Positions 38,623 through 42,916 of a stretch of DNA of 54,395 bases are shown piece by piece; positions within the stretch are counted from its first letter, which is position 1, and the number at the start of each line of letters is the position of its first letter. The position numbers were made by a program, and so were the translations under genes. The notes beneath the pieces are model-generated. The model saw only the letters and a list, made by a program, of their open reading frames with translations. It was not told the origin of the DNA and made no database searches. Origin of the DNA: a virus; UHGV virus genome UHGV-0107341. One strand, written 5' to 3'.

Positions 38623-38778
38623 TTACCTTTCAGATTCGTAGGCTGTGAAGACAGTGACCTCCGTCTGGCCGGTTCGGATTCGTACCTCGCAGAGGTCTTT
38701 CCTCGTTACCAGTGCCGTCACAATGACGGTTAAACAGATGACGATCAGAGCGATTAACATCGCTTTTTGCTGCTTCAT
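38623..38778 (-). CDS. hok: Hok/Gef-family type I toxin (51 aa)
   Basis: Not in ORF track; encodes MKQQKAMLIALIVICLTVIVTALVTRKDLCEVRIRTGQTEVTVFTAYESER, matching the Hok family pattern (TM helix, RK.LCE.R...EV.AF.AYES); GGAG RBS. Confidence 0.7.
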   Translation of the reverse strand: MKQQKAMLIALIVICLTVIVTALVTRKDLCEVRIRTGQTEVTVFTAYESER

Positions 38779-38836
38779 AGCCTGCTTCTCCTTGACCTTT
38801 TGGTCGGTAAGAGGCTAATCTACGTATGCTAAGCAT
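38630..38836 (-). CDS. mok: mok-like overlapping reading frame
   Basis: 68-aa ORF overlapping hok in the +1 frame and starting upstream of it, as in hok/mok/sok loci. Confidence 0.4.
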   Translation of the reverse strand: MLSIRRLASYRPKGQGEAGYEAAKSDVNRSDRHLFNRHCDGTGNEERPLRGTNPNRPDGGHCLHSLRI

Positions 38837-38860
38837 AGATATGGCCTCAGATTAATGTTA
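38790..38860 (+). ncRNA. predicted Sok-like antisense RNA region (position approximate)
   Basis: Inference only: hok/mok loci carry a short antisense RNA complementary to the mok translation-initiation region. Confidence 0.2.
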
Positions 38861-38959
38861 AGCGTCTTGCAGGACGCGTGATGTTATCTGGGGCTTTCTT
38901 CTATCTGCTTTTCGGGTAATGCCTGAAGCAGATAGCCTCAAGCACCCGCAACGATTGTA

Positions 38960-41095: not shown

Positions 41096-42139
41096 TTAAC
41101 CTATTGCTACTGGTTTTAACAAACCAGCATCAAGTAGCTTGCGAGTTAACCACTGCTGGCCTTTACCCGTTAATTGGGGCGTCAGCCGTATCTGGTAGCC
41201 ATTTTCATCATCCAGCACCACTTCTTTCACCGTGAAATACCCGGCGTTGATGTACTGTTGGCGCGGTACGTTTTTGCGCGCTCCAAAAGCCATGAGAATG
41301 CCATTCTGGCGCAACCATGAGAAAAGGACGTTTTGCTTAAGTCCAACGACCTTTGCAAAGTTCCCGATCAGGATTCCATTGGCCACTGATACCCGGTCGG
41401 CAAAATCGACTTTAGGGGCTGCGGCCACCAGCTGCTGTTCCAACTGCATTTTCTGTTCTGCCAACTCGGCAGCCAGGCGTAGAGCTTCTGGTAATGTTTG
41501 GGGGATCGATGGGGCAGGGGAGTTTGCCTGCTGCAATTCTTCCAGTTTGTCGATCAGCGAACGGTGGACCGCTTTTGACTCGCGCGCGGCGACTCGCAAG
41601 GCTTGTTTGTAGGTCATGGTGATGACCTCAAAAGAGCGCCCAGCCCTTGTGCCATGGGATTTTGCACTTTTTGTGTAAAATTCACCTTCAAGTTCATCGA
41701 GTATTTTTTCGATGAATTTATTGTTTCTAACCTCTGGTTCTCCACATAACTTGCGTGCCTCATTGACCATCTTCAACAATGTTTGGCTGTCGATTGTGTC
41801 TCCGGTGTTGGGGATGACATTCACGGCTGGTGTTGGCGTAGCTGACGTAACAGGTGCTGGTTTCTCAACATTCAAATTTTTACCGGTCACTCTATGTGCC
41901 TCCTTTCTCATTTCTGCTGCCACCGTTGCGTAACGTAGACGTCCTTGTTCAATCAAATAATCCCTGATCTCGGCTATCAGTAGCCTGTTGATCACAGCCT
42001 TATCTGTTCGGGTATAAAAACGCCTGGTTATCATGAAATAGTTGGCAATTGCGCCGGGGATCTCCCGTGTCGGCATACAGGCAGTATGCAGGGCGATTGC
42101 TTCGGCTATGTCATTACGGGTGACGAGAGGTTTTTTCAT
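41096..42139 (-). CDS. ant: antirepressor Ant (C-terminal KilAC/ANT domain)
   Basis: C-terminal 150 aa paralogous to the KilA C-terminus (IPQTLPEALRLAAELAEQK...); position downstream of icd. Confidence 0.6.
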   Translation of the reverse strand: MKKPLVTRNDIAEAIALHTACMPTREIPGAIANYFMITRRFYTRTDKAVINRLLIAEIRDYLIEQGRLRYATVAAEMRKEAHRVTGKNLNVEKPAPVTSATPTPAVNVIPNTGDTIDSQTLLKMVNEARKLCGEPEVRNNKFIEKILDELEGEFYTKSAKSHGTRAGRSFEVITMTYKQALRVAARESKAVHRSLIDKLEELQQANSPAPSIPQTLPEALRLAAELAEQKMQLEQQLVAAAPKVDFADRVSVANGILIGNFAKVVGLKQNVLFSWLRQNGILMAFGARKNVPRQQYINAGYFTVKEVVLDDENGYQIRLTPQLTGKGQQWLTRKLLDAGLLKPVAIG

Positions 42140-42357
42140 AAAACCCCCTGAACGTCGGCAGAGAAGGGGAGGTTCCAGTAACTAAGTGAATTGCGCGAGT
42201 TAGTTGAAAAACGGGCAGTAAAAATGCAGGGGCCATCAGGCAATTGAGAGCGTGCTTCGTCTTCTGTTGCTGCGATAACGAAGTGATAGTGGTGTTTTTT
42301 ACAGGAATAGAAACGCCAGATGAATTCTTGGCGTGCGCAAGGATTGGCATTAACCAT
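42136..42357 (-). CDS. icd: Icd-like small protein overlapping the ant start
   Basis: Internal Met of track ORF 42136..42555 gives a 73-aa protein (MVNANPCARQEFIW...) whose stop overlaps the ant start. Confidence 0.4.
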   Translation of the reverse strand: MVNANPCARQEFIWRFYSCKKHHYHFVIAATEDEARSQLPDGPCIFTARFSTNSRNSLSYWNLPFSADVQGVL

Positions 42358-42379
42358 AGTTACGGCCTCATTCGTAGGT

Positions 42380-42560
42380 TTAACAACCTGCGCCCCGCTG
42401 CTAAACGGGTGGCAGGACGTGACGGGGTTAGCAGACTGGCACGAATGAAACCAGCAGGCCGAAGCCTCCCCATCACGCCCCACCATAATTCGGGCGTAAC
42501 GTGGTTTTACGGACACAAAAATACCGCAATATCGGATATCTGCGGTTGTCCGCATTCGTA
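42380..42560 (-). ncRNA. candidate c4-like antisense regulatory RNA region
   Basis: Non-coding stretch between the operator at 42672 and icd; repeated complementary motifs (ctgctaaac at ~42398 and ~42568, gttagcag at ~42427); boundaries not determined. Confidence 0.25.
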
Positions 42561-42671
42561 TTCAGGCTGCTAAACCCGGTCGCAGAATTTTCTACGACGG
42601 CGGAACTATAAGCCTGAACGATTAAAAGGTCAATATGATGCGAAAAGATAGCATTCGCGACTTAAAAATAC

Positions 42672-42688
42672 AAATTTATTAGAGCATT
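42672..42688 (-). promoter_or_regulatory. C1 operator-like site (AATGCTCTAATAAATTT) at the head of the immI-like operon
   Basis: 16/17 match; followed by palindrome-like atttgtgcaataaatgcacaaat. Confidence 0.5.
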
Positions 42689-42784
42689 ATTTGTGCAATA
42701 AATGCACAAATGGATCTAATAACCTCTTTTTTTTAAAGGCGAAAATATGTACCCTAAATGGGTTATAAGGCAGGTGAGATTATA

Positions 42785-42916
42785 ATGAGAATACTATTAC
42801 TACCGTTATTATTTATGGCCGGGACTGTTAATGCAGCATCAAGCGTAAAGGAGATTTGTACCGATTATACGAAATACCTTGGGCACGTTTACGCCTTTGC
42901 GATCAATGACTATTAA
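42785..42916 (+). CDS. small secreted peptide (43-aa precursor, not in ORF track)
   Basis: ATG after GGTGAG; MRILLLPLLFMAGTVNA signal peptide then a 26-aa mature region with one Cys; AT-rich codon usage. Confidence 0.3.
   Translation: MRILLLPLLFMAGTVNAASSVKEICTDYTKYLGHVYAFAINDY

Follow-up and report, generated by a model that had tools for sequence, protein, structure and literature searches.

P7 is the classic heteroimmune partner of P1, and the heteroimmunity of the two phages rests on differences in the segments a and b. The established C4 model for P1 and P7 reportedly goes back to Citron & Schuster (1990/1992) and Biere et al. (1992). The product of c4 in these phages is a processed, trans-acting RNA of 77 nt behind superinfection immunity and heteroimmunity (PMC8546580, PMC12197685), and the mechanism of C4 has been summarised in several places (PMC8198154, PMC8546580, PMC12197685). 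A related logic is found in the CI RNA of the satellite phage P4, which we compare here at the level of its description. Like C4, P4 CI arises by processing of the leader of an operon under its own control and has complementary targets (seqA/seqC) both upstream and downstream. In contrast to C4, it ends the transcription of replication genes prematurely instead of blocking the translation of a leader ORF in front of an antirepressor gene. A third system is the IsrK / STnc1160 / anrP locus of the Salmonella prophage Gifsy-1 (RF01394 for the IsrK RNA; PMC4825925), and a parallel between IsrK and seqA of P4 has been drawn (PMC4825925). In a 2025 review, IsrK and c4 are listed as unrelated items (PMC12197685).

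We analysed the complete 54,395-nt stretch of the virus genome UHGV-0107341 (termed the window), in which a first-pass annotation had proposed a c4-like antisense-RNA immunity leader at 42357-42700. We identify this locus, with a probability of roughly 93%, as the part of the immI ('second immunity') operon of a P1-like phage-plasmid that comprises the leader and the gene for the regulatory RNA, with transcription on the minus strand. An Rfam scan of the whole window at curated thresholds returned two matches inside the proposed region, both on the minus strand, i.e., the C4 RNA (RF01695) and the c4-a1b1 leader motif (RF03163). These matches, together with a base-for-base alignment with the immI regions of P1 (AF234172) and P7, bear out the proposed kinship to P1 c4. 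All annotated immI features of P1 could be transferred onto the minus strand of the window by alignment: the operator, both promoters (P51a and P51b), a1, b1, c4, a2, b2, icd and ant1 align, with the order and spacing of a1, b1, c4, a2, b2, icd and ant as in P1 and with the stems of the 77-nt C4 RNA preserved. The operon orientation corrects the earlier reading in this respect, as all features described below lie on the minus strand unless stated otherwise.

Over a region of 661 nt, the window is 98.6% identical to Escherichia phage vB_EcoM-813R1, 94.9% to P7 and 94.1% to P1. The architecture is shared with P7 as well, although the sequence upstream of the operator (i.e., on the sim side) is unrelated between P7 and the window. 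In PLSDB, 575 plasmids matched a 361-nt leader query; most of these come from E. coli, are non-mobilizable and measure about 90-100 kb, and 22 of the 575 showed at least 99% identity to the query. About 20 P1-like plasmids from E. coli and Salmonella are 99.1-99.7% identical to the window. Judging from the identities to P1, P7 and vB_EcoM-813R1 and from the plasmid matches, the window belongs to the P1-like (Punavirus) phage-plasmids.

The operator-like site of the first-pass annotation, AATGCTCTAATAAATTT at 42688..42672 (-), agrees at every base with the operator Oc4 (formerly Op51) in the P1 annotation and carries a single mismatch to the consensus of C1 repressor operators. Across the window, nine C1-operator-like 17-mers were found with 0.34 expected. 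Two promoters follow by homology to P1, and both are identical to their P1 counterparts. The first, P2c4 (P51a), has a -35 element TTTGTAT at 42674..42668 that overlaps the C1 operator and a -10 element TATCTT at 42650..42645, with both hexamers identical to P1. The second, P1c4 (P51b), is formed by TTGACC (42633..42628) and TATAGT (42610..42605) with a 17-nt spacer, and was the only sigma-70-like site in a scan of 42000-42800 (10/12 matches). The operator is separated from the start codon of icd (42357) by 314 nt, in agreement with the approximately 300 nt of non-coding sequence noted previously.

Downstream, icd (42357..42136) encodes a cell-division inhibitor of 73 residues (NCBIfam phage_ICD_like, 52.7 bits vs 25) and shares 70 of these residues with P1 Icd and 72 with P7 Icd. 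Its stop codon overlaps the start of ant1 as ATGA. The antirepressor gene ant1 (42139..41096; 347 aa) matches the Pfam ANT/KilAC models with 104.6 bits and is positionally homologous to ant1/ant2 of P1. An in-frame start for ant2 lies inside ant1 on the same strand, a GTG at 41890 preceded by GAGG, again at the position homologous to P1. Furthermore, kilA is found downstream of ant, and simA/B/C lie across the operator, an arrangement as in P1.

The C4 RNA itself matches RF01695 at 42490..42405 (-) over the full length of the model (positions 1-87) with 71.9 bits, compared to a gathering score of 45. The first-pass annotation held that the RNA boundaries cannot be fixed from sequence alone. 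Homology to the 77-nt P1 RNA with its mapped ends (misc_RNA c4), however, allows the ends of C4 to be predicted at 42484..42408. In folding calculations, this 77-nt RNA reached -45.7 kcal/mol (z = -6.3), a stability that none of 200 shuffled sequences equalled. The predicted fold consists of a closing stem of 17 bp, two hairpins, the first capped by UUCG and the second with a loop of 9 nt, and an unpaired junction of 7 nt, and leaves both recognition segments unpaired. The segment b' (UCAUUCGU; 42448..42441) occupies C4 positions 37-44, wholly within the 9-nt loop, while a' (CUGCUAA; 42434..42428) occupies positions 51-57 and is exactly the predicted 7-nt junction. The architecture, the fold and the membership in the C4 family are shown directly by the sequence, as are the complementarity and the covariation described below.

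Four target sites map onto the respective annotations of P1. In the leader, a1 (UUAGCAG; 42573..42567) carries the P7-type allele and is followed by b1 (ACGAAUGC; 42559..42552), of which 7 nt are complementary to b'. In the icd-ant mRNA, a2 (UUAGCAG; 42404..42398) co-varies with a' and is followed by b2 (ACGAAUGA; 42375..42368). The segment a' is complementary to UUAGCAG of a1 and a2 at 7/7 positions, and b' matches b2 at 8/8 and b1 at 7/8 positions. The repeats reported earlier, CTGCTAAAC on the plus strand at 42398-42406 and 42567-42575, are present as described, and their near-complement CTGCTAAC occurs once in the window, on the minus strand at 42427-42434 between both copies. In the whole window, CTGCTAAAC gave three matches with 0.37 expected, a count reached in none of 100 shuffles. 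By their positions, these repeats are a1 and a2, and their complement is a' of C4, viewed on the opposite strand. The first-pass annotation had named a lack of conservation in relatives as grounds for refuting its proposal; the repeats are conserved there, however, and co-vary with the C4 loops.

A second complementary set, in which b' is matched by b1 and b2, had been missed by the earlier reader and overlaps the ribosome-binding site of icd. The core ACGAATG is found at 42559..42553 and 42375..42369 (-), with its complement in C4 at 42448..42441. As in P1, b2 overlaps the icd Shine-Dalgarno sequence, GAGG at 42369..42366, which lies 9 nt upstream of the ATG.

Extrapolating RNA processing, the block of translation, the polar effect on ant and the resulting immunity from the work on P1 and P7, the locus would operate as follows. 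Transcription would start from P51a and P51b under the control of C1, the repressor whose operator overlaps P51a, and would proceed from the structured a1/b1 leader through c4 and icd into ant1/ant2. The 77-nt C4 RNA would be excised from this operon transcript, with its 5' end generated in P1 by RNase P. The fold of C4, with its long closing stem and its pair of internal hairpins, would leave b' and a' unpaired and available to pair with b2 and a2 on the icd-ant mRNA. As b2 extends into the Shine-Dalgarno sequence of icd, this pairing would block icd translation. Transcription would then stop short of ant, no Ant antirepressor of C1 would be made, and lysogeny would be maintained. Superinfecting phages with the same a/b code would be repressed in trans. 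On the sequence level, the locus carries each of the testable defining features of the P1/P7 C4 antisense immunity family.

Two other readings of the locus have to be weighed against a diffusible C4 RNA. In one of these, the action of a' and b' would be confined to cis, and the primary transcript would be a self-contained riboregulator that makes no diffusible immunity RNA. As the order b'...a'...a2...b2 is nested, the transcript can indeed fold back on itself, and the order of sites permits a' and b' to pair in nested fashion with a1/b1 or with a2/b2 of their own molecule; covariation, moreover, is blind to the difference between pairing in cis and in trans. However, the c4 RNA of P1 and P7 is processed and trans-acting (PMC8546580, PMC12197685), and only 8 of the 77 positions in the C4 domain of the window deviate from the P1 RNA. 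Seven of these differences fall into a' and b', and the eighth changes a G-U to a G-C pair in the closing stem. Since C4 also folds as a very stable independent unit, we regard an action restricted to cis as highly improbable.

The other reading takes the region as protein-coding, with icd extended to a 139-aa 'Icd' at 42555..42136 (-). An uninterrupted ORF of this length is present in the window, where it extends the icd frame up through c4, and an 'Icd protein' is annotated in this way in vB_EcoM-813R1. Among 35 distinct relatives, however, the frame is closed within 11-28 codons upstream of the icd ATG in 26, P1 and P7 included, and both of these phages are annotated with an Icd of 73 residues. 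Moreover, the stretch in question matches RNA covariance models and shows compensatory changes of the RNA type. We give this reading next to no credence and treat the extension to 139 residues as an annotation artefact, given that the upstream frame is not conserved. An RNA gene that encodes C4, followed by a short icd, is thus the reading retained here.

To place the a and b segments of the window among those of its relatives, we scanned IMG/VR for exact matches to a conserved 25-mer of C4, which yielded at least 120 loci. The resulting allele table comprises 116 complete loci among the matches listed (113 from IMG/VR, vB_EcoM-813R1, P7 and the window itself). Over the 7-nt core, a1, a' and a2 matched each other in all 116 of these listed loci, and b1, the complement of b' and b2 were the same in 115 of them. 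Among the matches listed, a occurs in two alleles (UUAGCAG and UUGACAG) and b in six (GAUUGUG, ACUUACG, GUUAGUG, ACGAAUG, GUACAUG and ACUUGUG). A seventh b allele, GUUCAAG, is present in the more distant L106 and is matched at all three sites, so that at least seven b alleles exist in total. Of the 12 possible combinations of a with the six common b alleles, 11 were seen among the listed matches. The combination of the window, i.e., the P7-type a with the ACGAAUG b, was found in 12 of the 116 listed loci, the window and vB_EcoM-813R1 included.

The covariation was further quantified in 37 distinct sequences. Here, a' and b' were paired with their targets in 99.9-100% of cells, and compensatory changes were found in 6/8 pairs between b' and b2, in 6/7 pairs between b1 and b' and in 2/7 pairs of a. 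In these 37 sequences, 131 compensatory cells were observed compared to about 41 in shuffled data, and none of 500 shuffles reached the observed number; such shuffle-based statistics are inflated by the relatedness of the sequences, which affects neither the count of independent alleles nor a control in which the partner was slid by 1-3 columns and only 0-7 compensatory cells remained. The polymorphisms flanking the a and b segments are mosaic relative to the alleles, and this suggests frequent recombination in the immI leader region. In the literature searched, which did not include the likeliest source (Gilcrease & Casjens 2018), we did not find this population-level picture of the alleles.

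The comparison of the alleles sets the window apart from both reference phages. P1 carries UUGACAG as a and GUUAGUGA as b, in place of UUAGCAG and ACGAAUGA in the window, and these changes of the code are matched at all three copies of a and b; the window thus does not fit the P1 specificity type. P7 shares the a allele of the window (UUAGCAG / CUGCUAA), but its b allele (GAUUGUGA) differs from ACGAAUGA at 5/8 positions, so that with respect to the P7 type a fits and b does not. As the b allele of the window differs from those of P1 and P7, the window is predicted to have an immI specificity distinct from both. In vB_EcoM-813R1, the a and b alleles are the same as in the window. The predicted duplex energies point in the same direction for b: the window b' reaches -11.1 kcal/mol on its own target, compared to -4.5 kcal/mol on the P1 or P7 targets, and across the alleles the predicted energies of cognate b-loop duplexes (-11 to -12 kcal/mol) are well below those of non-cognate duplexes (-2 to -7 kcal/mol). 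For the a junction, duplex energies did not separate a P7-type C4 from the P1 target, and we discarded the a-site energies as evidence because P1 and P7 have a second UAGCAG between a2 and b2.

From these alleles, the element should escape P1-type C4 control and fail to impose its own on that type, and probably the same applies to control of the P7 type. More generally, the a/b code predicts the pattern of mutual exclusion among P1-like phage-plasmids, many of which carry resistance genes. The locus as such belongs to a known system, and only the allele series and the IsrK-like leader described below exceed textbook knowledge. By base-pairing prediction, the at least seven b codes look orthogonal, and they provide matched antisense/target pairs with which the limits of RNA-RNA specificity could be approached; this natural allele series could also supply parts for synthetic biology. 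For annotation, the stretch should be labelled as c4 RNA and its targets. In the records of vB_EcoM-813R1 and of the plasmids, c4 is unannotated, and the stretch either carries no feature or falls within an 'Icd' CDS that is too long.

The leader upstream of c4 matches the c4-a1b1 motif (RF03163) at 42611..42559 over its full length with 52.8 bits (gathering score 46.7). Its first hairpin lies at 42598..42579, and a second hairpin presents a1; in one divergent relative, the first hairpin shows four compensatory pairs. Between b1 and c4, we found a terminator-like hairpin (ACCGCAG...UUGCGGU; 42546..42523) followed by a U-tract (AUUUUUG; 42522..42516), together a putative terminator. The hairpin is kept in the consensus of the relatives, with one A-U to U-A change; a single-sequence minimum free energy fold favours a different pairing. 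Furthermore, the isrK model (RF01394) matches the window over its full length at 42598..42517 (-) with 45.3 bits and an E-value of 2.4e-8, which is below the gathering score of 50. The isrK match is also found in P1, P7 and D6, with scores of 35-51 bits among the relatives, and only L106 scores above the gathering threshold. The isrK-like span extends from the predicted start of the P51b transcript to the U-tract.

This resemblance extends to the arrangement of the operon. Gifsy-1 and the window both have a leader RNA, a processed RNA of about 80 nt and a short ORF that is coupled through ATGA to an antirepressor gene, and the leader RNA of Gifsy-1 has been reported as a trans-acting activator (PMC4825925). 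Specifically, Gifsy-1 IsrK is a terminated RNA of 77 nt with the read-through transcript as its target in trans (PMC4825925). By analogy, partial termination at 42546..42516 could release an IsrK-like RNA of about 82 nt, on which a1 and b1 would titrate C4. Such an RNA would add to the C4 mechanism set out above and not replace it. Its boundaries at the predicted P51b start and the U-tract, the recurrence of the isrK match in P1, P7 and D6 with a score above threshold in L106, and the conservation of the leader hairpins with compensatory changes are all consistent with this idea. In addition, a1 and b1 follow the changes of a' and b' perfectly in all seven b alleles, although they are termed 'putative' in the P1 annotation, and would therefore appear to be selected to pair with C4. 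Together with the likeness to IsrK, this covariation suggests that a1 and b1 are functional and may form a decoy RNA for C4.

Several observations weigh against a separately terminated leader RNA. The isrK score of the window is under the Rfam gathering threshold, the U-tract is interrupted (UAUUUUUG), and the leader hairpin is not among the three calls of a terminator scan. These calls comprise an artefact on the plus strand, caused by this same inverted repeat, and a weak site where icd and ant meet. As C4 has to be made from read-through transcripts, termination at this site cannot be efficient. Finally, the covariation of a1/b1 could be explained equally well by pairing in cis that guides the processing or folding of the precursor. 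We thus consider titration of C4 by a terminated leader RNA rather doubtful. The same caution applies to the combined proposal, in which a combinatorial a/b immunity code would be joined to a1 and b1 on a separately terminated, IsrK-like decoy leader, and which we put forward only tentatively. If it were true, the decoy leader would make the immunity switch a three-RNA circuit. To our knowledge, a separate leader RNA has not been described for P1-type phages.

Besides the two Rfam matches above threshold, the miRNA and snoRNA models gave weak matches over C4 or over the AT-rich promoter, with E-values of 0.02-7 and scores far under their thresholds, and on account of these scores we treated them as chance. 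Two ORFs of 109 and 42 residues on the plus strand were likewise set aside as gene candidates by their position, antisense to the minus-strand RNA elements mapped here.

Among the 116 complete c4 loci tabulated for alleles, comprising the IMG/VR matches listed together with phage vB_EcoM-813R1, P7 and the window, a mismatched C4 target was found in a single case. This locus (L044, IMGVR_UViG_2565956613_000015; operon strand 1-250) carries the ACGAATG allele at the b' segment of c4 and at the upstream target b1, but the P1 allele GTTAGTG at the downstream target b2. The apparent crossover lies within the 22-nt spacer between a2 and b2, and icd is intact. L044 may represent a natural recombinant predicted to evade its own C4 at b2, or else an assembly chimera. 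In P1 and P7, the a2-b2 spacer contains a second UAGCAG (GGGTAGCAGG), which could pair with the P7-type a' segment. The window reads GGGGCGCAGG at 42385-42394 and its spacer lacks the second UAGCAG, as is likewise the case for the ACTTACG-type loci. Duplex energies at the a sites did not discriminate between targets.

The a1/b1 leader, together with a hairpin and a U-tract, is matched by the covariance model of isrK, a small RNA of Salmonella Gifsy-1 (42517-42598, minus strand). The same model also matches the P1-type c4 loci of P1, P7, D6 and the more distant relative L106, with L106 being the only one of these five sequences, the window included, to exceed the gathering score. Despite this overlap of isrK with c4-a1b1 matches, the Rfam clan C4 does not include isrK. 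A 139-aa open reading frame joins the C4 region to icd (42136-42555, minus strand; counterpart in vB_EcoM-813R1 at 1705-2121 of locus L003) and is labeled 'Icd protein' in the record of that phage; in many plasmid records, 'Icd-like' coding sequences overlie the leader. We rejected this long Icd as a real gene since its reading frame is not conserved, and therefore regard it as an over-annotation that masks an RNA gene.

The sim and c4 promoters diverge, and between them a perfect 8-bp inverted repeat, TTTGTGCA-N5-TGCACAAA (42690-42710), directly precedes the C1 operator on its upstream side. This position is variable in relatives, where the palindrome is only imperfect; the repeat could be a protein-binding site or have arisen by chance. 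Across the window, we counted nine C1-operator-like 17-mers versus 0.34 expected. One precedes kilA and corresponds in position to OrepL/Op53 of P1 (41001-41017, minus strand), two form an overlapping divergent pair (22759-22786), and six further sites were found.

A few kilobases from immI, on the kilA side, the Rfam model for sok, the antitoxin RNA of hok/sok-type toxin-antitoxin systems, is matched over its full length (38773-38947, minus strand; RF01794, 112 bits vs 59); this locus is probably accessory cargo of the P1-like element. Furthermore, the Rfam tRNA model identified three tRNA genes on the minus strand (19875-19947, 21951-22023 and 22029-22101; 65-75 bits), an expected content of a P1-like genome.
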